From Siansivirga zeaxanthinifaciens CC-SAMT-1 (GTDB lineage Bacteria; Bacteroidota; Bacteroidia; Flavobacteriales; Flavobacteriaceae): 32,000 bases of DNA. A program made the position numbers and the translations under genes. The DNA lies in NCBI RefSeq assembly GCF_000941055.1, contig NZ_CP007202.1, forward strand, positions 2,556,437-2,588,436, given 5' to 3'. Under the pieces are notes generated by a model that was given only the letters and a program-made list of their open reading frames with translations, was not told where the DNA came from and searched no databases. Positions 4,384-22,295 of this stretch are shown piece by piece; the first letter of the stretch is position 1, and each line of letters opens with the position of its first letter.

Positions 4384-5703
4384 ATGTTTAATTTAATACT
4401 CAAAATTATGACCATTTACTTAAACAATCCCGAAGCCCTTTATCAGTTTTTTTATCTATTAGCTTTTGTTTTTTTATATTCAGTAATAATCATTGCTAGT
4501 ATAAAGCGTGGTTATCATTTACGGTCGGTATTATTAATGCTTACAACTATAACGCTTTTTACTGTTGTAGGTTCCAGACTCTTTACAATCTCTATAGAAG
4601 ACTGGTTTACGGCCTTAAACTCGAGTTTTGAGAACTATAACAACAGGTCGTCTGTTGGCGGGTTGATATTTGGTTTGTTGGCACTCTATATATCGCAACG
4701 TATTTTTAGGTTTAAACGCCCTATGTTAGAGCTATTTGCATGGTCTGCGCCCATTGCTATAGGTATTACCAAATTGGGTTGTTTATTTAATGGTTGTTGT
4801 TATGGTTTGCCTTTTAATGGCTTTTGGGGAATTCAATATGCTCCAGGAACACATGCGCATTACAATGAATGGTTTTTAGGGTCTATAGAAAAGGATGCTC
4901 TGCTTTCGTTATCACTTCACCCGGTTCAATTATATGATTGTCTTAGCATGATTGTTTTGGGCTACATTGTGTGGAAAACACGAAAATTGTGGAAAAAGAA
5001 TTTCAGTGCTATAATATTTGCCTTGTTTTTATTCTTTATTATTCGTTTTGGTGTTGAATTTTTTAGAGACCATAATTTATCATCATTCAGTACTCAGTTT
5101 TATTGGGGTGTTTGGTCTTATCAATGGGTTATGTTAGGCGTTGCTATGCTTCTGCTATTAGCATTATGGTATTACGAAAAAGTATTAAAAACAGATATAG
5201 TAAAGGGGGATCAAAACTCACCAATTATTCACGCCGAATTTACATATATCACTATACTATCTGTTCTTGTTTACGCTTTAAATAATTTATTAATGCCTTA
5301 TGAACTTCTGGTAATCTGGATATTATTTATTCCGGCTATTATTCTAACTTTTTATTTTGTGTTTACCGAGAGCAGATTACACAAGCATCGAAGCCTTGTT
5401 AGTATATTACTGCTAACTCCTTTTTATGTTTTGGCACAAACAATTCCCGATCAAACTCCTAAAATTAAACAATACAATCGTATCGATTTAGGTGCTTCGT
5501 TTGGATCGTTTGCCAATGAATTTAAATATAATCCACAGGAAGCAGAAAACGCATGTGGTACAGGTACGAATTATTCCTATGAGTATTTTAAACAGGTATA
5601 TCAATTAGCAGGGCAGGGTATTCCCAAGTTTATGTTAAAGATAATAATACCAAAACTTTTGGAATTAATGTCTCGGGAGGTACTGTTAAAAGCACCAGTT
5701 TAA
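4384..5703 (+). CDS. Prolipoprotein diacylglyceryl transferase (Lgt)-family polytopic membrane protein; the 3' end is probably frameshifted into the next ORF
   Basis: Multiple hydrophobic helices and a GCLFNGCCYG motif, as seen in Bacteroidota Lgt-like proteins. The last roughly 30 residues (GIPKFMLKIIIPKLLELMSREVLLKAPV) look like out-of-frame translation. Confidence 0.6.
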   Translation: MFNLILKIMTIYLNNPEALYQFFYLLAFVFLYSVIIIASIKRGYHLRSVLLMLTTITLFTVVGSRLFTISIEDWFTALNSSFENYNNRSSVGGLIFGLLALYISQRIFRFKRPMLELFAWSAPIAIGITKLGCLFNGCCYGLPFNGFWGIQYAPGTHAHYNEWFLGSIEKDALLSLSLHPVQLYDCLSMIVLGYIVWKTRKLWKKNFSAIIFALFLFFIIRFGVEFFRDHNLSSFSTQFYWGVWSYQWVMLGVAMLLLLALWYYEKVLKTDIVKGDQNSPIIHAEFTYITILSVLVYALNNLLMPYELLVIWILFIPAIILTFYFVFTESRLHKHRSLVSILLLTPFYVLAQTIPDQTPKIKQYNRIDLGASFGSFANEFKYNPQEAENACGTGTNYSYEYFKQVYQLAGQGIPKFMLKIIIPKLLELMSREVLLKAPV

Positions 5704-7158: not shown

Positions 7159-7218
7159 TTCTATTGCAGATTGTAAACCACTTACCCTAAGAGGTTTACA
7201 GCCTATATTTAACAATTG
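7159..7218 (+). repeat. Copy A of a roughly 60-nt direct repeat in the susC leader
   Basis: TTCTAT-N6-ATTGTAAA-N10-TAAGAGGT-...-CCTAT-...-CAATTG. It contains an 8-bp hairpin, TGTAAACC (7172..7179) with GGTTTACA (7193..7200). By hand alignment, 43 of 57 aligned positions match copy B. Confidence 0.7.
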
Positions 7219-7310
7219 AGAATCTTTATTCATTATTACCTTTCTATACCATAAACCTTTATTATTCTATTTTTTAACTTTAGAACTATGTGTTTTAAGA
7301 GTTTGTATTA

Positions 7311-7367
7311 TTCTATCTTTAATTGTAAATCTCTAACATTAAGAGGTCTTCAACCTATCTTCAATTG
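7311..7367 (+). repeat. Copy B of the susC-leader direct repeat, offset 152 bp from copy A
   Basis: It has the same conserved blocks as copy A (TTCTAT, ATTGTAAA, TAAGAGGT, CCTAT, CAATTG) with the same 18-nt spacing between ATTGTAAA and TAAGAGGT. Confidence 0.7.
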
Positions 7368-7437
7368 TTGAAAATATAATTTTCAATCGAACTGTTTCAT
7401 GGTAAAAATCCTTTTACCATAATATGCTTTTTATTTT
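7368..7437 (+). promoter_or_regulatory. Two consecutive perfect hairpins just upstream of the susC start; the second is terminator-like
   Basis: First hairpin: TTGAAAAT (7368..7375) with ATTTTCAA (7379..7386). Second hairpin: ATGGTAAAA (7399..7407) with TTTTACCAT (7412..7420), loop ATCC, followed by AATATGCTTTTTATTTT. It ends 33 nt before the ATG at 7470. Confidence 0.5.
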
Positions 7438-7469
7438 AAATTATTTAACTAACTCAAAAAAAATTATTT

Positions 7470-10469
7470 ATGAAGTTAACATATCATTTATTCATTTTCT
7501 TCATGTTTTTTATTCTGGGCACTCATGGTTTCGCCCAAAAAGTTATTACAGGAACTGTTTTAGCACTTGATACAGAAGAACCTTTAATGGGAGCTAGCGT
7601 TATAGACCCTTTAAGTAAAAAAGGAAGTATAACCGATTTTGATGGTCGTTTTACCATAGAGATACCTAATTCGAGTAAAACTTTGAAAATTTCATATGTT
7701 GGTTATGAAACCTACACTTTAAATGTAACCAACGAGACAAATTATAAAATTGTTTTAAAAGCTGGTGAATCTTTAGATGAGGTTGTTGTTGTTGGCTATG
7801 GAACACAAACTAAGAAAGATATTAGTGGTAGCTTACAAACTATTAAAACTGAAGATATAGCCAAAATACCCGCATCAAGTTTTGAAAATGCTCTACAAGG
7901 GCAGACACCTGGTGTTAATATTTCATCTGCATCTGGAACACCTGGAAGTGCCGTTAACATTAATATTCGTGGGGTTTCTTCCATATCGGCTAGTAGCCAG
8001 CCTTTGTTTATAGTCGATGGTGTACCTATCGTATCGAGAAATAATTCTGCTTTAAATGCAAACATTCAACCTACAAACCCATTAGCAGATATTAATCCAA
8101 ATGATATTGAGTCCATTACCATTTTAAAGGACGCAGCAGCAGCTTCCATTTATGGTTCAAGAGGTGCTAATGGGGTAATATTAATTACTACAAAGCGAGG
8201 AGAAACAGGTAAAACTACTGTAGATGTTGGATTTTATACGGGTTTTTCTGAAATTACAAGTACACCAAAAATGGCTAATAGTGAGACGTTTAAAGAATTT
8301 TTTAATACAGCAGCAGCATTTGATGGTTTAGGAGCCGATTATTTTGATTGGATTGATACTTCAAACGGAGTTAATACCAATATCTATGATGAAATTCTTA
8401 GAACAGGTGTTACCAAAAACCTAGATATTAGTGCTAGAGGAGGTTCGGAAAAAACAAAATTCTATTTAAGTGGAAATTATTACGACCAAGAAGGTATTCA
8501 AATTGGACAAGGATTTAAAAGACTTAGTGGTAGATTAAATCTTGATCACACCATAGATGAGAAGTTTAAAATAGGGTCTACTATTTTTGTAAATAGAAGT
8601 AATCATCAAAGAACTATTAATGAAAATGACGAATATGGAGTAGTAATCAATGCCCAAGGTTGGGATCCTACAGCTCCCATTTATAATGAAGATGGTAGTT
8701 ATGTAAATCCCTTTAGTTATAATACCTGGTGGCCATTAGAAAACCCTGTACTTATTGCCAACGAATACAAAAACGAATCACAAAGCACGCGTTTACAATC
8801 TTCTGCATATTTAGAGTACAAAATAATACCTAATTTAACATTTAGATCGGCTTACTCTTTAGAATATTCAAATTTTGTTGAAACGTCTTTTGTTCCAGTA
8901 GGCACTAATAAATCTGATGAAGGCGAAGCTATTTTTGCAACCTATGAAGAAACTACTTGGCAATTAGAAAACACTTTAAATTATTTAAAAACATTTAAAG
9001 AAAAACATAGTTTAGGTTTAACTGGTGGTTGGACTTTACAGGAAACAAAATCACAATCTTCAGACCAAGAGGGTATAGGATTTGCTACCAATAATTCTTC
9101 AAGTATTAGTGCTGCCAGTACAATTATTTCGAGTACAACTGGAAAAAATCAATTTGGACTTCAGTCATTTTTCGGTCGTATGAATTACACTTTCGATAAT
9201 CGTTATATAGCTTCATTTACATTAAGAGCAGACGGATCGTCTCGCTTTGGAGATAATAATCAATATGGTTATTTTCCATCAGGATCTCTGGCATGGAGAA
9301 TTGATAAAGAGTCATTCTTTAATGTAGATCAAATTTCAAATTTCAAGTTAAGAACCAGTTATGGTATTACTGGAAATCAAGAAATTTCATCCAATTGGGT
9401 TGGCACCTATTCTTTAAATGCCTCTTACAATGGTGTTCCAGGAATTGCTCCAAACCGTTTAGAAAACGAAAACTTAGGTTGGGAAAAAACAAAACAATTT
9501 AACTTAGGTCTAGATTTAGGTTTATTTAACAATCGTATCAGCTTAACTGCAGATTACTTTAAAAAAGAAACAGAAGATCTACTATTAAGTGCAGATGTAC
9601 CAGGACTTACAGGTTTTAGTTCTGTATTTCAAAATGTTGGAGAAATAGAAAACAGCGGATTGGAATTTAATTTGAATGCTGCTATTATTGATAATGACAA
9701 TTTTAAATGGAATTCTAGTTTCAACATTTCCTTTTTGGATAATAAAATTAATAAGTTATTAAATAATGGAGAAAATATTGGACGTAATCATATTTTACTG
9801 GAAGGAGAATCTGTAAGCACCTTATTTTTAATAAAATCGTTGGGTGTAGATCCACAAACGGGCGATGCGTTGTTTGAAGATTTAAATAACGATGGTATTA
9901 TTGATTTTGACGATAGACAAGTTGTTGGAAGTGCCTTACCAGATTATTTTGGTGGCTGGCTAAATAGTTTTACATATAAAAACTTTTCATTAACCGCTAA
10001 TTTTCAATTTTCTGGTGGAAATAAAATTTTTAACCAGAGTCGTCATGCATTTGAAAACTTTGGGTTTACCAGAAGCGGCATACCATATGGTAATATTAGC
10101 CAACGTGTTTATGATAATTATTGGAGAACACCTGGTCAAATTACAGATGTTCCAAGACCTTCAACAGAAAGTGGACAATTGCAGCGATTTAGTACACAAT
10201 TTTTAGAAAATGGTGATTATGTAAGGCTTAAAACACTTCGTTTGGCATATACGTTTAATGCCGATAAATTAAAAACCATAGGACTAAATAACTTGTCGGT
10301 ATATATACAAGGACAAAATTTATTTACCATTACAGATTATTTAGGTTTCGATCCAGAAGCATCTACAAATACCTCAAGTCAAGAAGATTTAAATATTTTG
10401 CAAGGTGAAGATTTTGGTACATTAGGACAAGCTCGCACTATATCCATAGGATTTACTACAACATTTTAA
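7470..10469 (+). CDS. susC: SusC/RagA-family TonB-dependent outer-membrane transporter
   Basis: 999 aa. It has a signal peptide ending GFAQ, an N-terminal carboxypeptidase-regulatory-like domain (ITGTVL...GASV...TDFDGRFTI), a TonB box DEVVVVGYG and a plug region (IESITILKDAAAASIYGSRGANGVILITTKRG). The C-terminus is typical of a beta-barrel and ends in F. It is followed immediately by a SusD gene. No STN domain is present. Confidence 0.95.
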   Translation: MKLTYHLFIFFMFFILGTHGFAQKVITGTVLALDTEEPLMGASVIDPLSKKGSITDFDGRFTIEIPNSSKTLKISYVGYETYTLNVTNETNYKIVLKAGESLDEVVVVGYGTQTKKDISGSLQTIKTEDIAKIPASSFENALQGQTPGVNISSASGTPGSAVNINIRGVSSISASSQPLFIVDGVPIVSRNNSALNANIQPTNPLADINPNDIESITILKDAAAASIYGSRGANGVILITTKRGETGKTTVDVGFYTGFSEITSTPKMANSETFKEFFNTAAAFDGLGADYFDWIDTSNGVNTNIYDEILRTGVTKNLDISARGGSEKTKFYLSGNYYDQEGIQIGQGFKRLSGRLNLDHTIDEKFKIGSTIFVNRSNHQRTINENDEYGVVINAQGWDPTAPIYNEDGSYVNPFSYNTWWPLENPVLIANEYKNESQSTRLQSSAYLEYKIIPNLTFRSAYSLEYSNFVETSFVPVGTNKSDEGEAIFATYEETTWQLENTLNYLKTFKEKHSLGLTGGWTLQETKSQSSDQEGIGFATNNSSSISAASTIISSTTGKNQFGLQSFFGRMNYTFDNRYIASFTLRADGSSRFGDNNQYGYFPSGSLAWRIDKESFFNVDQISNFKLRTSYGITGNQEISSNWVGTYSLNASYNGVPGIAPNRLENENLGWEKTKQFNLGLDLGLFNNRISLTADYFKKETEDLLLSADVPGLTGFSSVFQNVGEIENSGLEFNLNAAIIDNDNFKWNSSFNISFLDNKINKLLNNGENIGRNHILLEGESVSTLFLIKSLGVDPQTGDALFEDLNNDGIIDFDDRQVVGSALPDYFGGWLNSFTYKNFSLTANFQFSGGNKIFNQSRHAFENFGFTRSGIPYGNISQRVYDNYWRTPGQITDVPRPSTESGQLQRFSTQFLENGDYVRLKTLRLAYTFNADKLKTIGLNNLSVYIQGQNLFTITDYLGFDPEASTNTSSQEDLNILQGEDFGTLGQARTISIGFTTTF

Positions 10470-10480
10470 TATTTAATATT

Positions 10481-11830
10481 ATGAAAAGAACATATATTTA
10501 TATACTTACACTAACATTGTCTTTAAATTTATTAACCGGATGTGACAATGTGTTAGACATCGAATTAGATGACGAAATTAAAAGTACAGAAGCCATCACA
10601 GATGAAGTATCACTGCGCTCGGCAGTTATTGGTTTGTATAGCGAAATGCAAAGTAGTACTTATTATGGAGGCGAATTTGTTGTTGCTCATGCTCTAACAG
10701 GCGGAATAGCCGATGCAACCGCTTTCCAAGAACGTTTTTCTCAATTGGCAAATGCTATCATTCCTACATCGAACACCTATATAGAAAGTAATTGGGTAGA
10801 TGTTTATGCGCTTGTTAATTCAAGTAATTTAATTTTAGATAAGATAATAGAATTAGGTATTGACGACCCCAACTCTGAGGGAACAGCTTTATTTTTTAGA
10901 GCGCTTGGTCATTTTGATGCTTTAAGACAATTTGGTGAGTTTACTAATAAAAGCTCTAATTATGGTATTCCAATATCAACTATGTTTCTAAATACTGAAA
11001 CATCTGTTTTAATAGCAAGATCGTCTGTAGCAGATTCTTTCTCTAGAATTGTTAAAGATTTAAATGATGCCATCGCATTATTAGATTACGATGACGATAG
11101 ATATTTTGTATCTCGCGCAACAGCAGAAGCTTTATTAGCCAGAGTTTATCTTTATCAAGGTGAATATGCTCTCGCAGAGCAATTAGCTACAGATGTCATA
11201 GAAAACGGTGATTATGTTTTAAATAACTTTTTTAATGATATTTATAATGTTGAAGGTTCTGATGAATCTATTTTTGAATTGCAATTTCAAGGCGTAAGAG
11301 GTAATGGCTTAACTGCATTGTTATCAACATCACCTCCAGAAGTCTCTGCCAATTACGATAATTTCTTTAAAGACATGGATGCTGATGATGACCCGAGAAG
11401 TTACAAGTTTTACGACACTGGAAGTATTATTTATGTTGACAAATATGGTGTAAGTGATAATGATGTTGAAGGAAATGCCATTATTTTAAAGCTTTCTGAA
11501 ATGTATTTAATACGAGCAGAGGCAAGAGCACGACAAACACCAACCAATTTAAAAACAGCTTTAGAGGATTTAAATGAAGTTAGAACACGCTCACTGCCAA
11601 CCATGCCAATACTTGAAGCTAATATTCCAGATTTTGATGCTTTTGTTGATGCATTGTTAGAAGAACGCGCCAGAGAATTAGCTTTTGAAGGCCATCGTTG
11701 GTTTGATATTGTAAGATTGGGTAGGGCAGAGAGCCTATTAGGAATTCCGGCATACCGAACAGTATATCCTATACCCCAAAGAGAGGTAAATATTTCAAAA
11801 GGAGTTATCGTACAAAACCCTGAATATTAA
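10481..11830 (+). CDS. susD: SusD/RagB-family nutrient-binding outer-membrane lipoprotein
   Basis: Lipobox LLTGCDN. The sequence is TPR-like and helical, with the conserved C-terminal block ERARELAFEGHRWFDIVR. It starts 11 nt after susC. Confidence 0.92.
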   Translation: MKRTYIYILTLTLSLNLLTGCDNVLDIELDDEIKSTEAITDEVSLRSAVIGLYSEMQSSTYYGGEFVVAHALTGGIADATAFQERFSQLANAIIPTSNTYIESNWVDVYALVNSSNLILDKIIELGIDDPNSEGTALFFRALGHFDALRQFGEFTNKSSNYGIPISTMFLNTETSVLIARSSVADSFSRIVKDLNDAIALLDYDDDRYFVSRATAEALLARVYLYQGEYALAEQLATDVIENGDYVLNNFFNDIYNVEGSDESIFELQFQGVRGNGLTALLSTSPPEVSANYDNFFKDMDADDDPRSYKFYDTGSIIYVDKYGVSDNDVEGNAIILKLSEMYLIRAEARARQTPTNLKTALEDLNEVRTRSLPTMPILEANIPDFDAFVDALLEERARELAFEGHRWFDIVRLGRAESLLGIPAYRTVYPIPQREVNISKGVIVQNPEY

Positions 11831-11847
11831 CATTGAATACATTGAGA

Positions 11848-11903
11848 GTAATTCTAACTTGAAGTCCCTTAACTTTATTGATTTGGCTTCAAGTTAGAAT
11901 TAC
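11848..11903 (+). terminator. Strong stem-loop (perfect 17-bp stem) between susD and the downstream enzyme genes; probably a partial terminator or attenuator
   Basis: GTAATTCTAACTTGAAG (11848..11864) is the exact reverse complement of CTTCAAGTTAGAATTAC (11887..11903). The loop is 22 nt and the stem is followed by ATTTTCT. Confidence 0.6.
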
Positions 11904-11933
11904 ATTTTCTATAAAAACTTATTAAAAAAATAA

Positions 11934-12884
11934 ATGTCAAAAAAAACAAAATATTCCCTCTGCATTCATGGTGGAGCAGGTGTTATTATTAAAAATAAAT
12001 TATCTACTACAGATAAAAATTTAATAATAGCCGACTTAAAAGCTAGTATAGCAGCAGGAGAAAATATATTAAACAAAGGTGGTTCTGCTACAGATGCCGT
12101 ATGTGCAGCAGTTGAAGTTTTAGAAAACAGTATGCATTTTAATGCAGGAAAAGGCGCTGTTTACAACCGCAACGGAGAACATTTACTGGAAGCCTCTGTA
12201 ATGGATGGTGCAACACTAAAAGCTGGTGCTTTAGCAAATTCAAAGCGAATTAAAAACCCTGTTCTTTTTGCTAAAACATTACTAAACAGAGATGATGTTG
12301 TATTTATTTCTGGAGATTCGGTAGATGCGCTTGCGGGTGAACTAGGTCATCCCTTGGTAGATAATAATTATTTTGACACCAGTTTTAGGAAAGAACAATG
12401 GGAATTTGCCCAAAGCCTTTCAGATAACACTACTTTTTTAGATCACACTAATCTAAAAATGGGTACTGTAGGTGCTGTGGCTTTAGATACGCACGGCAAT
12501 TTAGCCGCAGCTACTTCTACTGGGGGTATGACAAATAAATTAGATGGTCGTATAGGAGATTCGGCAATAATTGGGTGTGGTACATATGCAAAAAATAAAA
12601 CATGCGCAGTATCTTGTACTGGCATTGGAGAATTTTTTATGAGAGCTACTGTAGCATCAACAGTTTCCCACTTAATGGAATATGGTGGCTTATCGTTGGA
12701 GGCTGCAGCGCATCAAGCCATCCATGAGCATCAAGCAAAACTTGGAGGCGATGGTGGTCTTGTTGCCATCGATGCACAAGGAAACATAACAATGCCATAC
12801 AATTCACAAGGCATGTACAGAGCCTTTGTAAATGAAGGTTCTAACAAAAGAGGAGTATTTATTTGGGATGAAGCAGAAAACTAA
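11934..12884 (+). CDS. iaaA: Isoaspartyl peptidase / L-asparaginase (Ntn-hydrolase, asparaginase_2 family; IaaA-like), predicted cytoplasmic
   Basis: Family blocks are visible: CIHGGAG, the autoprocessing/nucleophile site MGTVGAVALD, TSTGGMTNKLDGRIGDSAIIGCGTYA and SCTGIGEFFMR. There is no signal peptide. Confidence 0.88.
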   Translation: MSKKTKYSLCIHGGAGVIIKNKLSTTDKNLIIADLKASIAAGENILNKGGSATDAVCAAVEVLENSMHFNAGKGAVYNRNGEHLLEASVMDGATLKAGALANSKRIKNPVLFAKTLLNRDDVVFISGDSVDALAGELGHPLVDNNYFDTSFRKEQWEFAQSLSDNTTFLDHTNLKMGTVGAVALDTHGNLAAATSTGGMTNKLDGRIGDSAIIGCGTYAKNKTCAVSCTGIGEFFMRATVASTVSHLMEYGGLSLEAAAHQAIHEHQAKLGGDGGLVAIDAQGNITMPYNSQGMYRAFVNEGSNKRGVFIWDEAEN

Positions 12885-12892
12885 ATTAAATC

Positions 12893-13789
12893 ATGATGAA
12901 ATTAATTAACATCGCAAACATTCTATTCATTTTTACGATCATGTTTTCTTGTAAAGAGAAAGCATCAAACTCAACTGCAAACCAACAATCTATTGAAGCT
13001 TTAAAAATTGTTAATAAACCTAAAGGAAAACTTTTTATCATAGGAGGAGGGAAGCGTCCCAAAGAAATGATTAAAGAACTACTAACAACAAGTAATTTTA
13101 ATAATGAGGCATATCTGGTTATCCTGCCTATGGCAAGTCAAGAACCAGATTCTACCATTTATTATGCTTCAAAACAATTTGAAGAGTTGGGTATCGATTC
13201 AAAAAAAATTAAAGGTTTTAATTTTGAAAAAAACAAAGAAAATAAAGTCTGGTTAGATTCTTTAAAACAAGCTAAAATTATCTATATTTCAGGAGGCGAT
13301 CAGGTAAAATTTATGGATGTTGTTTTAAACACACCTATATATGATGCTTTACATGAGGCTTATCAAAATGGTACTACTATAGCAGGAACTAGTGCCGGGG
13401 CTGCAATAATGAGTGAAAAAATGATTACCGGAAATGAATATAAACATAAAGAATACACCGGGGATTTTAGAACTATTGAAGCCAATAATATAGAAATTTC
13501 ACAAGGCATGGGATTTATAAAACATGCTATTATCGATCAACATTTCGTAAAACGCATGCGTATGAATCGCTTAGTGAGTATAGCTATAGAACATCCTAAC
13601 GAAACCGCTATTGGAATAGATGAATCTACAGCCATTATTATTGAGGGCGACAGTATTAAAGTTACTGGCTTATCTCAAGTAATTGTCATTAAAAATCCCA
13701 AAAAGAATCTTAAAATTAAAGAAGGATTACTAGGTGCAGATCAATTAGAATTAAGTGTAAAATTACCTGGAAGCAGATTTACATTTTAA
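12893..13789 (+). CDS. Cyanophycinase (peptidase S51), predicted lipoprotein
   Basis: Lipobox FTIMFSCKEK. S51/cyanophycinase blocks are present: LFIIGGG, YISGGDQ, the nucleophile-serine block IAGTSAGAAIMS, IIDQHF and AIGIDESTAIIIEGD. At 298 aa its length fits cyanophycinase better than PepE. Confidence 0.8.
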   Translation: MMKLINIANILFIFTIMFSCKEKASNSTANQQSIEALKIVNKPKGKLFIIGGGKRPKEMIKELLTTSNFNNEAYLVILPMASQEPDSTIYYASKQFEELGIDSKKIKGFNFEKNKENKVWLDSLKQAKIIYISGGDQVKFMDVVLNTPIYDALHEAYQNGTTIAGTSAGAAIMSEKMITGNEYKHKEYTGDFRTIEANNIEISQGMGFIKHAIIDQHFVKRMRMNRLVSIAIEHPNETAIGIDESTAIIIEGDSIKVTGLSQVIVIKNPKKNLKIKEGLLGADQLELSVKLPGSRFTF

Positions 13790-13821
13790 AAATGTAATTA
13801 AAAATATTTGAAATAAAAGTT

Positions 13822-15210
13822 ATGAAATTATTTAAAAAATTTCCAGACACCATTAGTATTATATTAGGAATCGGAATTCTATTTATTATTTTAACTTGGC
13901 TCATTCCTGCCGGAGCATTCAACAAAGAACTTGTTAACGGCAGAGAAGTCATAGTAGCTAACAGTTATAAACATATTCCAGCGCAACCTCAAGGCATATG
14001 GGCGTTTCTTACATTTCCAATAAAAGGTTTTGTATCTGCTTCTTTTGTTATTGCTTTTGTTTTTTTGGTTGGAGGTGCTTTTTCAATACTTACAAAAACA
14101 GGCGCTATTAATGCCGGACTATTTAAAGTAATTACAATTAGTAAAAATCGACCTCAGTACAAAATCTTTATTATACCTAGTATTGTTGCGCTTTTTTCTT
14201 TAGCTGGAGCTACATTTGGTATGAGTGAGGAAATTTTAGTATTCATCTTAATTACTATTCCTTTATCTCAAGCCATGGGCTACGATGCAATTATTGGCGC
14301 AGCCATTCCTATAGTAGGCACTGGCGTTGGTTTTGCTGGTGCATTTACAAATCCGTTTACTATTGGTATTGCTCAGGGAATAGCTCAAATACCAATTTTT
14401 AGTGGCATAGAATATCGTTTAGTAGTATGGTTTATACTAACACTTATCGCATGCATTTTAATAACAAGATATGCCCGAAAAATTGATAAAGACCCTACAA
14501 AAAGTTTCATGTATGATCTGGAAATTAACACCTTAGAAAAATTCAATAAAAACGATATTCCCGAATTCAATAAATCACGTAAACTTATTTTAGTTGCATT
14601 ATTCCTGGCATTAATTATTCTCATTTATGGGGTAAATGTATATCAATGGTATATCAACGAAATTGCTGGATTATTTATTGGGCTTGGCATTATTAGCGCT
14701 CTTATTTATAAAATGCCGGTATCAAAAGCGATACAAGCATTTATTGAGGGAGCTAAAGAAATGATGTCTGCTGCTTTAATTATTGGTTTAGCTAAGGGTT
14801 TGTTAGTAATAGCAGAAGATGGAAAAATTATAGATACCATATTAAATTCCGTAGCTGTAATGGCAGGAGACACACCTCAATTTATTTCAGTTAGTCTTAT
14901 GTTTTTATTTCAAAGTTGCTTAAACTTTTTTATTCCTTCAGGCTCAGGTCAAGCTGCTTTAACTATGCCTATTATGGCTCCTCTAAGCGATTTATTGGGC
15001 ATTAGTAGGCAGTTAGCTGTACTTGCATTTCAATTTGGAGATGGACTAAGTAATATGATAGTTCCAACTAGTGGCGTTACTATGGGAACTTTATCAATTG
15101 CTAAAATTCCATACAATGTATGGTTTAAATGGATATGTCCAACGGTAATTATTTTAAGTTTTATAGCTGTATTGTTGTTAATATTACCATTATTCTTATT
15201 TGAATGGTAA
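13822..15210 (+). CDS. yfcC: YfcC-family (DcuC-superfamily) inner-membrane transporter
   Basis: 462-aa polytopic membrane protein. Its N-terminus (FPDTISIILGIGILFIILTWLIPAG) and overall layout match the YfcC / C4-dicarboxylate anaerobic carrier-like family. Confidence 0.75.
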   Translation: MKLFKKFPDTISIILGIGILFIILTWLIPAGAFNKELVNGREVIVANSYKHIPAQPQGIWAFLTFPIKGFVSASFVIAFVFLVGGAFSILTKTGAINAGLFKVITISKNRPQYKIFIIPSIVALFSLAGATFGMSEEILVFILITIPLSQAMGYDAIIGAAIPIVGTGVGFAGAFTNPFTIGIAQGIAQIPIFSGIEYRLVVWFILTLIACILITRYARKIDKDPTKSFMYDLEINTLEKFNKNDIPEFNKSRKLILVALFLALIILIYGVNVYQWYINEIAGLFIGLGIISALIYKMPVSKAIQAFIEGAKEMMSAALIIGLAKGLLVIAEDGKIIDTILNSVAVMAGDTPQFISVSLMFLFQSCLNFFIPSGSGQAALTMPIMAPLSDLLGISRQLAVLAFQFGDGLSNMIVPTSGVTMGTLSIAKIPYNVWFKWICPTVIILSFIAVLLLILPLFLFEW

Positions 15211-15274
15211 TATTTATATAAAATCGGCTTAAATGAATATGTAACTTAAATAAATCCCAAAACAGTTATGCTGT

Positions 15275-16426
15275 TTATTTATCTTTCTTAGGTTTATTAA
15301 TTGATATACAATGGAAACCACCACCATCTCTATTAAGTTCTACACAATCAAGCATTATAATTTTCTTTTCAGGAAAAATACTTTTAAATATAGTGGCTAC
15401 TTCGGCGTCTTTAGAAATGGCATCATCACTCTTTAGGTATTGCGCATAGCTAGGAACGATAACTTTATTTTTGGTAATAATAAAATTTAAGTAACTGGTA
15501 GACCTTATAAATGTTCTTATTTCATTAAAATTTAATTCGTTTTCAATAAGTAATGGAGCCATAGACACTCTAATAATGTTTAAAGGATTTCCATCTTGGT
15601 CTGTAGCATTTTTAAGAATATGATAGTTTTCTTCCAATCGCTCATGAGCTATTTTTACTATTGGGTTTGTATTTATTTCATTGGTATTTACCTTGGCTAA
15701 TAGCACCGTATTAGGCGAAATAAATCTGCAAAAAGCATCTATATGGTTACCTGCACCATTGGTGTAAATATTTCCAAATATTGGTGTTTCTGCTAGTAAT
15801 TCATCTTGTGGGAGTCCGCTTTTTAACCATATAATTTTTTTTACGCCCAATTTTTCTTTTAACTCTTGAGCAATGTCTTCTTTGGTTAATTTTGGATTGT
15901 TGTATGCTTCATGTTTTTCAACCAAAATAGCTAAACCTTTACCATTTAGTTCTCTTGCACCACCAATACCAACAATTTTAGAGGCCCTAAGCCGCTGTTT
16001 TACAAATGATTGATATTCATAAGGAAATGTGTTTTCCTCATAATCGTTATACTTAAAACTTAAAATTTTGGTTTCTCCACTTTTATTCATTAAAAATGTA
16101 GGGCCAAAATCACGAACCCATATATTCGTATTGTTTACCTTTACTAGTTGTACATTATCCATATTAACTCCAAACAACTTAAGTTGTTTAAATAAACTAT
16201 CTACTATGGTTTTTTTAGGTACAAATAGAGTAACATGATCGTCTTCGGCCAAATTCTTAACGAAATTAACATAGGTGTTAGCATGGGATGGAGACCAAAC
16301 CACTAAATGGGATTCGGTTTCATCAAAATCGGTAGAAGGTTGATAATCCTCATTATAATTTAAAAAATACCAAGTAAAACTTGCGGTTATTACCATGGAA
16401 ACAAGTACAATAATTTTTGTTTTCAT
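15275..16426 (-). CDS. Agmatine deiminase / Porphyromonas-type peptidyl-arginine deiminase family protein with an N-terminal signal or anchor
   Basis: Guanidino-group-modifying enzyme blocks are present: NIWVRDFGPTF (WxRDxGP), GAGNHIDAFCRFISPNTVLL, SYLNFIITKNKVIVPSY, and the C-terminal catalytic-Cys block GGGFHCISINKP. The N-terminus is hydrophobic (MKTKIIVLVSMVITASF). Confidence 0.85.
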   Translation of the reverse strand: MKTKIIVLVSMVITASFTWYFLNYNEDYQPSTDFDETESHLVVWSPSHANTYVNFVKNLAEDDHVTLFVPKKTIVDSLFKQLKLFGVNMDNVQLVKVNNTNIWVRDFGPTFLMNKSGETKILSFKYNDYEENTFPYEYQSFVKQRLRASKIVGIGGARELNGKGLAILVEKHEAYNNPKLTKEDIAQELKEKLGVKKIIWLKSGLPQDELLAETPIFGNIYTNGAGNHIDAFCRFISPNTVLLAKVNTNEINTNPIVKIAHERLEENYHILKNATDQDGNPLNIIRVSMAPLLIENELNFNEIRTFIRSTSYLNFIITKNKVIVPSYAQYLKSDDAISKDAEVATIFKSIFPEKKIIMLDCVELNRDGGGFHCISINKPKKDK

Positions 16427-19548: not shown

Positions 19549-20607
19549 CTAAATATTATCAGCAATCCAAGTACCAACTTCTTTAGTGCCGTAAGCTTTA
19601 CCGCCATCGGCTAAATCTTCGGTAACCATACCTTCAGCTAAAGCTTTATTAACAGCATCTCTAATAGCTTTACCTTCTTCTGGTAAATTAAAAGCGGTTT
19701 CAAACATCATTGCAGCCGATAAAATAGTTGCCATTGGGTTTGCAATATTTAATCCCGTTGCTTGTGGATACGAACCATGAATTGGCTCGAATAATGCGAT
19801 ATCTGCTCCCATAGACGCCGATGGCATTAATCCCATAGAACCAGAAATTACTGAAGCTTCATCGGTTAAAATATCACCAAATAAATTTTCGGTAATTAAA
19901 ACATCGTAACTATTAGGCCACTGTACTAAACGCATAGCCACGGCATCAACAAACTCATAAGAAACCGTTACTTCTGGATAATCTTTCTCCATAGCCTGTA
20001 CGGTTTCTCTCCATAAACGCGAGGTTTCTAAAACATTGGCTTTATCAACACAACATAATTTTTTAGAACGTGTCATCGCTAATTCAAACCCCTTTTTAGC
20101 CAAACGCTGTACTTCTTCTCTTGTATAAACGCAGTTATCGAAAGCCGTCTCACCGCCATCTCTTCTACCTTTTTCACCAAAGTAAATACCACCAGTTAAT
20201 TCACGTAAAAACACTAAATCGGTGCCTTCAATACGCTCTTTTTTTAATGGCGACTTATCTAATAACGACGGAAATGTAAACGTAGGACGTACGTTAGCAA
20301 ATAATCCTAACTTTTTACGCATTTTAAGTAAACCTTGCTCTGGTCTTACCGGCGCAGACGGGTCGTTATCGTATTTCGGGTGACCAATAGCACCAAATAA
20401 AACAGCATCCGAAGCTAAACAAACTTCATGCGTTTCATCTGGGTAAGGCTCGCCTACAGCATCAATAGCCGCAGCACCAGTTAAAGCTGGCTTCCAAGTT
20501 ATTTCATGTCCAAATTTTTTAGCAACAGCATCACTAACTTTTACTGCTTCATTAATGACTTCCGGGCCAATACCGTCCCCTGCTAAAAGTGCTATATTAA
20601 ATTTCAT
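19549..20607 (-). CDS. leuB: 3-isopropylmalate dehydrogenase
   Basis: [17 protein letters not shown]..., LYFGE-type block [32 protein letters not shown]. It is the last gene of the leuCDAB cluster. Confidence 0.95.
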
Positions 20608-20771: not shown

Positions 20772-22295
20772 TTAATTTGTTATAATATTCAACATTTTTT
20801 CGGTAGCCTTAATAGCAGATACCGTTTGATCTGAATCTAAACCACGTGTTTTAAATTCTTTAGTTGCATTTTTCCAGGTAATAATGGTTTCGCATAAGGC
20901 ATCCGAATGACTTCCAGGAGGTATCCTTACGGCATAATCAATTAATTCTGGTAATTCCTTTTTCTTAATTTTATATATCCCACGTAAGGCATTCATAAAA
21001 GCATCAAATTGTCCGTCGCCCGAAGCATTTTGCTCGTAAACAGTCCCATTAATGGTAATAGATACGGTTGTCGAAGGCTTTAAACCTTTAGCATGTGTTA
21101 GCGCATACGAATTAACTTTTACGTTTTCTTGGTATGAATAACTGTCTAAAACATCCGATATGATATATGGTAAATCTTCTTTAGTTACAACTTCTTTCTT
21201 ATCACCTAACTCAATAATACGTTGGGTAACTTTCTTTAAATCGTTATCGTTAAGTTGTAAACCAAGTTCTTGTAAATTCTTTTGAATATTCGCTTTCCCC
21301 GAGGCTTTCCCTAAAGCATATTTACGAGTTCTACCAAAACGCTCTGGCATTAACTCACTAAAATACAGATTCTTTTTATTATCGCCATCGGCATGAATAC
21401 CAGCCGTTTGGGTAAATACATTGGCACCAATTACAGGTTTGTTTGCCGGAATCATAATCCCCGAAAAGTTTTCTACCAGTTTACTAACGGTATATAATAC
21501 TTTCTCATTAGCCGCGATTTTTATGTGTGGCATAAAATCGTTAATAACCGCAATGGTACTGGCCATTGGTGCATTTCCAGCGCGTTCGCCCATACCGTTA
21601 ATAGTAAGGTGCAAACCATCTGCTCCAGCATTAAGCCCCGCCATAACATTGGCAACTCCTAAATCGTAATCGTTATGCGCATGGAAATCGAAATGTAAAT
21701 GGGGATACTGGTCTTTTATTTGCTTAACAAAATCAAACGATTCGTAAGGTGTTAAAATACCTAAAGTATCGGGCAACATGATACGTTTAACGTTTTGAGT
21801 CGATAAAAACGCTAAAAATTCGAAAACGTAATCTTTAGAATTACGCATCCCGTTACTCCAATCTTCTAAATACACATTGGTTTCAATGCCTTTAGATTCT
21901 GCATTTAAAATCGTTTCTTTAATTTCTGTAAAATGCTGACTAGGAGTCTTTTTAAGCTGATAAGTTAAATGATTTAATGAACCCTTAGTTAACAGGTTTT
22001 GCACCTTAGCTCCTGCTTCAATCATCCATTCTAACGATACGCCTTTATCAACAAAAGTTAAAACTTCTACCTTATCTAGGTAGTTATTCGCTTTTGCCCA
22101 ATTGGTTACGCCTTTAACGGCTTGAAATTCACCTTCAGACACACGTGCCGAAGCAATTTCAATACGATCGACTTTTAACTCTTCTAAAAGCAGCTTAGCA
22201 ATAGTTAATTTTTCTGAAGCAGAAAACGACACTCCCGAGGTTTGTTCACCATCGCGAAGTGTCGTATCCATTATTTCAATTTGTTTTGCTTCCAT
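20772..22295 (-). CDS. leuA: 2-isopropylmalate synthase / citramalate synthase family enzyme (LeuA/CimA) with a C-terminal regulatory domain
   Basis: DTTLRDGEQTSGVSF and the HxH metal-site block FDFHAHNDYDLGVAN are present, and the 507-aa length includes a LeuA-dimer-type C-terminal domain. It lies between leuD and leuB. Confidence 0.85.
   Translation of the reverse strand: MEAKQIEIMDTTLRDGEQTSGVSFSASEKLTIAKLLLEELKVDRIEIASARVSEGEFQAVKGVTNWAKANNYLDKVEVLTFVDKGVSLEWMIEAGAKVQNLLTKGSLNHLTYQLKKTPSQHFTEIKETILNAESKGIETNVYLEDWSNGMRNSKDYVFEFLAFLSTQNVKRIMLPDTLGILTPYESFDFVKQIKDQYPHLHFDFHAHNDYDLGVANVMAGLNAGADGLHLTINGMGERAGNAPMASTIAVINDFMPHIKIAANEKVLYTVSKLVENFSGIMIPANKPVIGANVFTQTAGIHADGDNKKNLYFSELMPERFGRTRKYALGKASGKANIQKNLQELGLQLNDNDLKKVTQRIIELGDKKEVVTKEDLPYIISDVLDSYSYQENVKVNSYALTHAKGLKPSTTVSITINGTVYEQNASGDGQFDAFMNALRGIYKIKKKELPELIDYAVRIPPGSHSDALCETIITWKNATKEFKTRGLDSDQTVSAIKATEKMLNIITN

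Follow-up and report, generated by a model that had tools for sequence, protein, structure and literature searches.

Introduction

Cyanophycin is a major store of nitrogen and carbon that is released on cyanobacterial lysis, and Bacteroidota are the main responders to blooms. The abstract of Ben Hania et al. 2017 (Environ Microbiol 19:1134) reportedly describes a transport complex homologous to those of polysaccharide utilization loci (PULs). As far as the citation in Sharon et al. 2023 (PMC10206079) goes, that work described a Bacteroidetes 'cyanophycin utilization locus' (CUL) in Salinivirga, which has two cyanophycinases, one of them with a Por secretion domain (PMC6243061). Outside the Bacteroidota, cyanophycin was inferred from gene context to be a substrate of a TonB-dependent transporter (TBDT) in an alphaproteobacterium (Tang et al. 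2012; PMC3400609). In this study, we analyzed a five-gene susC-susD operon of Siansivirga zeaxanthinifaciens CC-SAMT-1, located in a 32-kb stretch of DNA (the window, to which all positions refer unless a locus is named), and we consider it quite probable that this is a compact cyanophycin utilization operon, with a proposed flow of import followed by degradation. The preliminary description of this DNA knew of no characterised SusCD system for cyanophycin; this stands as regards experimental tests, of which none was found in the literature searched, but the concept had been predicted in 2017. The idea is uncharacterised rather than unknown, and its novelty was overestimated in that description.

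The operon consists of five genes on the + strand in the order susC-susD-iaaA-S51-yfcC, with gaps of 11, 103, 8 and 32 nt when the open reading frames (ORFs) were re-read in the window. The first, susC (7470..10469, +), encodes a SusC/RagA TonB-dependent outer-membrane transporter of 999 aa with a signal peptide, a CarboxypepD_reg domain, a plug and a barrel, and with no STN domain in the domain search. It scored 905 bits against TIGR04056 (cut-off, 368) and 67.6 bits against the TIGR04057 signature (cut-off, 46.2) and, with susD 11 nt downstream, shows the complete set of SusC/RagA family features. The product of susD (10481..11830, +) is a surface lipoprotein of 449 aa with PF07980 and PF14322, in which lipobox Cys21 is followed by the acidic export signal C-DNVLDIELDDE, as in SusD/RagB surface lipoproteins. 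Downstream lie genes for an IaaA-type isoaspartyl (beta-aspartyl) peptidase (11934..12884, +; 316 aa; Asparaginase_2, PF01112, 331 bits), a predicted cyanophycinase of the S51 family (12893..13789, +; a 298-aa lipoprotein; TIGR02069, 165.7 bits), assigned here to S51 clade 1, and a YfcC/DcuC-family inner-membrane transporter (13822..15210, +; 462 aa; PF03606, 362 bits; NF008611, 402 bits). A PAD_porph-family gene (15275..16426, −; 383 aa; PF04371, 190 bits) converges on the last of these. The S51 sequence matches the annotated cyanophycinase of the host, S. zeaxanthinifaciens CC-SAMT-1, a marine bacterium of the family Flavobacteriaceae, with 100% identity. When all window ORFs of 90 aa or more were scanned against Pfam, there was no match to a glycoside hydrolase, polysaccharide lyase, carbohydrate esterase or sulfatase. 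The strict definition of a PUL, susC/susD with at least one carbohydrate-active enzyme (CAZyme), does not apply to the locus, which is PUL-like in architecture only. The five co-directional genes and the convergent gene matched the preliminary description exactly in coordinates, strands and gaps, and its remark that no CAZyme lies in or near the locus agreed with the scan.

Like the CUL of Salinivirga cyanobacteriivorans L21-Spi-D4, the Siansivirga locus combines SusC/SusD with a clade-1 S51 protein and an isoaspartyl dipeptidase in the absence of CAZymes, and the scavenging of cyanophycin from lysed cyanobacteria is predicted for both. The Salinivirgaceae contigs carried S51, SusC, SusD, IadA (TIGR01975, 488 bits; cut-off, 331) and an S51 protein with a Por_Secre_tail, and their clade-1 S51 is 55-60% identical to that of Siansivirga. 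The SusC/SusD, cyanophycinase and isoaspartyl dipeptidase components of a CUL are all represented in the Siansivirga locus, whereas a second secreted S51 protein with a Por/T9SS (type IX secretion system) domain, present in Salinivirga, is missing from the window. The two loci also differ in the dipeptidase family (IadA, an amidohydrolase, in Salinivirga and IaaA, an Ntn hydrolase, in Siansivirga), in the SusCD lineage (SusC, 24% identical; SusD with PF12741/PF12771 there versus PF14322/PF07980 here), in the YfcC transporter, which Salinivirga lacks, and in a 59-nt cis-element, described below, that was not detected there.

The proteobacterial route (Pseudomonas anguilliseptica CphE; P. aeruginosa AotJQMP and CphZ, PMC9974463) follows the same two-step logic, in which an extracytoplasmic S51 enzyme yields beta-Asp-Arg, a transporter of the basic-amino-acid type takes it up and a cytoplasmic dipeptidase releases Asp and Arg; in contrast to the Siansivirga system, its cyanophycinase is secreted to the medium, no TonB-dependent gate is involved, the transporter is of the ABC type and the dipeptidase, CphZ, is M14-type. 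In Citromicrobium sp. JLT1363 (PMC3400609), cyanophycin was likewise inferred as a TBDT substrate by gene context, but this organism is an alphaproteobacterium and its TBDT is a conventional one without a SusD partner. With classical PULs (Sus and the levan and dextran utilisomes), the Siansivirga locus shares the core of susC and susD, lipoprotein signals for the surface, an enzyme that finishes degradation in the periplasm and a transporter in the inner membrane, and the best solved relative of its SusC is the glycan-type SusC 8aa4 (E = 1.7e-137); unlike them, it lacks CAZymes and a surface enzyme, and no hybrid two-component or extracytoplasmic function (ECF)/anti-sigma regulator adjoins it. 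RagAB of Porphyromonas gingivalis is also a SusCD-type pair for a non-glycan, peptide substrate; however, RagA was the third-best solved match to SusC, RagB matched SusD with E = 1.7e-4, the Siansivirga pair did not fall into the RagAB subfamily, and the RagAB operon contains no dedicated enzymes.

Identity of the Enzymes and the Carrier

The S51 protein passed the cyanophycinase equivalog model TIGR02069 (165.7 bits; cut-off, 126.6) and failed the PepE model NF003642 (47 bits; cut-off, 156), and its closest solved structures are the cyanophycinases 7uqv, 3en0 and 7uqw (E = 1e-27 to 1e-25). Its catalytic triad, Ser167/His217/Glu244, aligned with Ser132/His174/Glu201 of Synechocystis CphB, Ser167 lying opposite the S132A substitution in 7uqw. 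Arg221, Arg223 and Arg226 corresponded to Arg178, Arg180 and Arg183 of CphB, the stretch with the substrate residues reading DQHFVKRMRMNRL in the S51 protein and DQHFHNRNRMARL in the CphB structure. From the CphB structure papers, we take Arg180 and Arg183 to have substrate-binding roles, and His174 and Arg178 are described as binding beta-(Asp-Arg)2 in PMC12661447. The triad and the His/Arg substrate positions were invariant across 27 aligned S51 homologs from across Bacteroidota. These data support the assignment of the 12893..13789 product as a cyanophycinase, predicted to convert cyanophycin to beta-Asp-Arg, as the preliminary description had proposed, rather than as a PepE-like peptidase.

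The product of the third gene aligned end to end with the Escherichia coli IaaA/EcAIII precursor 2zak (E = 3e-77), and its segment 178-303 corresponded to positions 1-126 of mature beta chains (1jn9_B, 2zal_B), so that Thr178 occupies the position of the autoprocessing nucleophile. IaaA/EcAIII is characterized by an Asparaginase_2 fold whose beta subunit starts with the nucleophilic Thr, and the earlier identification as an IaaA-like isoaspartyl peptidase holds on these grounds. The best-matching model was that of beta-aspartyl-peptidase, NF007589, with 299.5 bits against a cut-off of 567, which by the NCBI rule makes the protein a more distant family member and not a strict equivalog. The YfcC family is annotated as a basic-amino-acid antiporter whose function "remains to be characterized". 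As the sole candidate carrier within the operon, the YfcC-family protein may import beta-Asp-Arg or exchange basic amino acids.

Conservation of the Five-Gene Module

Scanning of genomes with patterns from the one S51 sequence alone recovered no relatives, whereas an alignment-based scan of one genome per GTDB species recovered more than 590 as a lower bound, and 80 S51-anchored loci were kept. In the flank-complete subset of 50 Bacteroidota loci, with at least 8 kb on each side, a SusC homolog was present in 38 and both SusC and SusD in 33, with the pair upstream on the same strand in 27; iaaA was found in 15 and yfcC in 11. The yfcC gene was present in 17 of the 80 S51-anchored loci. The entire five-gene module, with near-equal gene lengths, recurred in six more loci, those of Flavobacterium aquariorum (L002), Christiangramia lutea (L083), Yeosuana marina (L164) and Galbibacter mesophilus (L165), and of two metagenome contigs (L084 and L166), so that yfcC accompanies all seven copies of the module. 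Since the flanking genes are unrelated in each locus, the module behaves as a unit.

As a reverse control, metagenome contigs were scanned with an alignment of SusD proteins only, giving 80 SusD-anchored loci. Only one contained an S51 gene, and that locus had a SusD of 61% identity and the whole module; no S51 gene lay within 10 kb in any of the remaining 79 (SusD identity, 23-35%). The adjacency of S51 and SusCD therefore exceeds the background, and the gene-neighbourhood check suggested in the preliminary description came out in favour of the association. Judging from sequence identity, only the close SusD clade (at least 40% identity) looks dedicated to cyanophycinase loci. The pairing of SusCD with cyanophycinase probably arose more than once, because the SusC of Salinivirgaceae is so distant; a single orthologous lineage for all cyanophycinase-linked SusCD pairs was rejected on this ground and on that of the relatives at 30-40% identity in loci without S51. 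The clade-1 S51 family comprises more than 4,000 protein clusters, with at least 590 matches among species-representative genomes, and this abundance suggests that the cyanophycin trait is common in Bacteroidota.

The SusCD pairs of L085-L123 are 28-35% (SusD) and 33-42% (SusC) identical to the Siansivirga pair. Their neighbours (e.g., L089:12825-14285 and L113:11587-13074) include M20 and S10 peptidases, an OsmC fusion and unannotated proteins, and no glycoside hydrolase was found among ten genes sampled near these pairs. This hints at a broader non-glycan SusCD clade around them; a peptide-type clade was not defined from the M20 and S10 neighbours, as the sample was too thin.

Cellular Location and Proposed Flow

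In the Siansivirga S51 protein, the lipoprotein Cys20 is followed by KEKAS, without an acidic export signal. All 84 S51 orthologs examined carry an N-terminal secretion signal, and many have a plain signal peptidase I (SPI) signal, cleaved directly before a conserved KGKLFIIGGG. Counting D/E residues from +2 to +6 after Cys gave a mean of 0.43 for the lipoprotein S51 orthologs and of 2.15 for the SusDs of the same loci; 26 of 40 lipoprotein S51 orthologs had no D/E in these positions, while 82% of the partner SusDs were acidic at +2. According to the lipoprotein-export rule for Bacteroidota, reportedly established by Lauber et al. 2016, an acidic signal after Cys directs lipoproteins to the surface. 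Since such a signal is absent, the clade-1 S51 is predicted by this rule to face the periplasm, where it would probably act after import. The order of capture, degradation and import given in the preliminary description is then probably wrong for this S51 protein. The IaaA-type protein has no signal peptide, 11934 being the first start codon past an in-frame stop, and is predicted to be cytoplasmic; the beta-Asp-Arg dipeptide must therefore cross the inner membrane.

In the proposed flow, the surface SusD would capture soluble cyanophycin chains or (beta-Asp-Arg)n oligomers, which SusC would import in a TonB-dependent manner. The lipoprotein-tethered S51 in the periplasm would trim the imported chains to beta-Asp-Arg dipeptides, the YfcC-family carrier would take these across the inner membrane, and the cytoplasmic IaaA-type Ntn hydrolase would split them into Asp and Arg. 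As no surface depolymerase is encoded in the locus, the strain may rely on polymer that is soluble or pre-digested, or on enzymes that neighbouring cells release. The identity of the enzymes, the conservation of the module and the reverse control all support the view, already taken in the preliminary description, of an operon of PUL architecture for the uptake and degradation of cyanophycin.

A second clade of S51 proteins occurs in many related loci. These proteins are 19-26% identical to the Siansivirga S51 and keep the GGDQ, GTSAG and D-x-H motifs, scoring 67-78 bits, below the cyanophycinase cut-off; Ser and His of the triad are retained and the acidic position varies. Two surface routes were seen among them. 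A T9SS sorting domain, in some cases with GEVED or fn3, is present in the proteins of L002 (2361-4127), L084 (4293-6338), L011 (12120-13400) and L082 (14188-16146, −), and the proteins of Yeosuana (L164, 11240-12298) and Galbibacter (L165, 12486-13559 and 13736-14806) are lipoproteins with an acidic stretch after Cys. The clade comprises 3387 protein clusters at E <=1e-20, some named 'cyanophycinase-like exopeptidase', and no characterised member turned up in the material searched. Judging from these signals, the second-clade S51 looks like a surface depolymerase in a PUL-type division of labour. Neither a second S51 nor a Por_Secre_tail protein was found in the 32-kb window, and the best 120 matches to the Yeosuana paralog, which include Yeosuana, Mariniflexile, Aquimarina, Tamlana and Galbibacter, contained none from Siansivirga, which is suggestive.

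Several points weigh against the proposed function. In its native form, cyanophycin is a large polymer with poor solubility at neutral pH, and no surface depolymerase is encoded in the locus, so that the transported species is unclear. The missing acidic signal is the sole ground for placing S51 in the periplasm and predicts location imperfectly. Some loci without S51 have SusC/SusD relatives at 30-40% identity, and the Salinivirgaceae SusC is only 24% identical to that of Siansivirga. The YfcC family has no characterised substrate. IaaA-type enzymes are promiscuous for beta-Asp-X dipeptides (PMC10206079), and this enzyme is therefore no proof of cyanophycin specificity. Finally, no experiment linking any SusCD pair to cyanophycin was found in the literature searched.

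One alternative, the order proposed in the preliminary description, keeps the function and changes the topology: a surface S51 would cut cyanophycin outside the cell, and SusCD would be a high-affinity importer of beta-Asp-Arg or of very short oligomers. In being a lipoprotein, S51 resembles the enzymes on the surface in classical PULs, the locus offers no other candidate for a surface enzyme, and characterised cyanophycinases release dipeptides (PMC10206079). However, the CKEKAS sequence lacks the acidic signal seen in most partner SusDs, and the 26 orthologs devoid of D/E after Cys, together with the many plain SPI signals, which are periplasmic in Bacteroidota, argue for a periplasmic location. 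The second S51 clade, with its T9SS tails and acidic lipoprotein signals, suggests that the surface role in relatives belongs to a separate protein, and a dipeptide of ~290 Da would normally need no SusCD pair. We consider this topology unlikely.

Still less probable, in our estimation, is the general scavenging of aspartyl or isoaspartyl peptides, such as beta-Asp peptides from aged proteins or Asp-rich oligopeptides, by a RagAB-like SusCD and a PepE-like S51. The breadth of the IaaA enzymes for beta-Asp-X dipeptides would suit such a role, the S51 family does include the aspartyl dipeptidase PepE and McC-cleaving enzymes, and SusCD relatives (SusD, 30-35%) adjoin M20 and S10 peptidases. Against this, the S51 protein lies far above the cyanophycinase cut-off and far below that of PepE and conserves the CphB residues contacting beta-(Asp-Arg)2, the SusCD pair is no close relative of RagAB, and the basic-amino-acid annotation of the carrier family suits a product that contains Arg. 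It is very improbable that the substrate is an endogenous cyanophycin store, synthesized by a CphA whose gene lies elsewhere and turned over by the operon: many Bacteroidota genomes do encode CphA1, all of them also with a cyanophycinase (PMC10206079, Table 2), and cphA is expressed in Flavobacterium psychrophilum, but storage granules are cytoplasmic while S51 and all its 84 orthologs examined have secretion signals, the S51 gene is co-transcribed with an outer-membrane import pair, and none of the seven module loci contains a cphA-like gene.

Thus, we prefer the import-then-degrade operon for cyanophycin. If true, the SusCD machinery extends beyond glycans and RagAB-type peptides to a branched non-ribosomal polyamide. 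The Siansivirga operon, with its five genes, is the smallest version seen; it belongs to a strain that is in culture and has a complete genome, and is a convenient model for the recognition of a polyamide by SusD, the chain length passed by SusC and the cargo of the YfcC family.

A Paired 59-nt Element and Hairpins in the Operon

The 618-nt region upstream of susC contains two copies of a 59-nt element, a distal one at 7169..7227 (+; 67 bits with the covariance model R1, see below) and a proximal one at 7321..7379 (+; 74 bits), the latter ending 91 nt before the susC ATG. The element has an outer inverted repeat, TGYAA...TTRCA, an inner hairpin and a core, CARCCnATnTTyrAyTG, and its consensus can be written TGYAA-[variable hairpin]-yTnCARCCnATnTTyrAyTG. 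Over 46-47 nt, the Siansivirga copies matched the DNA preceding susC in L002 and L084 with 89-91% identity, while the proteins of these two loci are only 55-71% identical; the match of the proximal copy to that of F. aquariorum (L002) was 91% over 46 nt, with proteins of 55-68%. A second 59-nt pair precedes the T9SS S51 gene in L002 and L084. The R1 model, trained on 11 copies, also detected copies outside its training set, which precede susC in L083, L164, L165, L166 and five Cytophagales loci, and S51 paralogs there. In total, 27 copies were found in 12 loci, all of them upstream of susC or an S51 paralog and in gene orientation; homologs precede susC in 11 loci besides Siansivirga. Neither the control SusCD loci (992,756 nt) nor the other types of S51 locus gave a match to R1. 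Two features are new here: this paired element, which precedes susC and the surface S51 genes, and the conserved hairpin between susD and iaaA described below.

RNAalifold predicted no consensus RNA structure for the element, and its covariation did not exceed that of shuffles with the 11 copies, while it was suggestive with the 27, which are model-fitted. The susC leader had no Rfam match even at E <=1, a scan for sigma-70 promoters and terminators performed no better than shuffles, and the Bacteroidota promoter pattern TTTG-N17-22-TAnnTTTG had no match in the window. We read the 59-nt pair as a putative dedicated cis-regulatory element, i.e., an operator, promoter or leader, through which the expression of the operon is probably controlled; in relatives, the same pair also lies in front of the gene of the surface or T9SS S51 paralog. 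The element offers a handle on the regulation of such loci, which lack the usual hybrid two-component system (HTCS) or ECF/anti-sigma pair.

We tentatively put forward a joint hypothesis, which as a whole we hold to be somewhat doubtful, that SusCD imports intact oligomers for periplasmic depolymerisation, that the 59-nt pair is the operator or leader of an undescribed cyanophycin/beta-Asp-Arg regulon common to Flavobacteriia and Cytophagia, co-controlling the surface S51 and the import operon, and that beta-Asp-Arg is the substrate of YfcC, which would be the first assignable in that family.

The regulators encoded just upstream of the module vary among loci, with a His_kinase and a LytTR response regulator in L166 (1830-3649) and an AraC-family protein in L084 (1530-2717), and none was found near the Siansivirga module, so that the gene context does not point to an obvious factor reading the 59-nt element. 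Between the proximal copy and the susC start, a possible leader attenuator was noticed by eye at window positions 7399-7440 (+), in the form of an AT-rich hairpin (ATGGTAAAA-atcc-TTTTACCAT) with a T-rich run behind it.

The gap between susD and iaaA contains a stem-loop (11848..11903, +) with a 19-bp stem followed by an A/U-rich tract. Its folding energy was -26.3 kcal/mol (z, -5.4), and none of 200 shuffles folded as well. A comparably strong hairpin lies at the same position in all six other modules (7/7 overall), with differing sequences. The hairpin is probably a partial terminator or an mRNA stabiliser, and it probably sets the ratio of expression between the transporter and the enzyme genes.

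The Convergent Gene and Other Features

The preliminary description had the convergent PAD-family gene close the locus as an agmatine deiminase/PAD-family member. The protein scored well below the agmatine deiminase cut-offs (TIGR03380, 127 bits versus 382; NF010070, 133 versus 483). No homolog was detected by tblastn in 163 related loci, and none was present among the called genes of L164-L166. The gene, absent from all 166 related loci examined, lies outside the system, and its candidacy as a sixth member, e.g., for Arg deimination, was rejected. At the N terminus, the protein carries a hydrophobic signal or anchor (MKTKIIVLVSMVITASF...), and a GGGFHC motif is found C-terminally; an exported guanidino-modifying enzyme adjoining an arginine-releasing operon is intriguing, yet none of the related loci has it.

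The S51 locus of Gelidibacter algens (L011:800-7306) showed a different arrangement, with control by an ECF sigma factor and a FecR anti-sigma factor, a SusC with an STN domain and two PKD/DUF5050 beta-propeller proteins, which are possible surface binding proteins. An M20 peptidase stands in place of IaaA or IadA in this locus, and is a candidate for the Bacteroidota isoaspartyl dipeptidase described as undiscovered in PMC10206079.

Two further features were observed elsewhere in the window. An Lgt-like protein of 439 aa (4384-5703, +) has its LGT domain in residues 19-256 and an unannotated C-terminal extension of ~180 residues. A Flavo-1 RNA (RF01705; 20666-20749, −) scored 55.7 bits against a gathering score of 42, and sits between an Iso_dh/leuB-like gene (19549-20607) and a leuA-like gene (20772-22295), within an apparent leuCDAB cluster.

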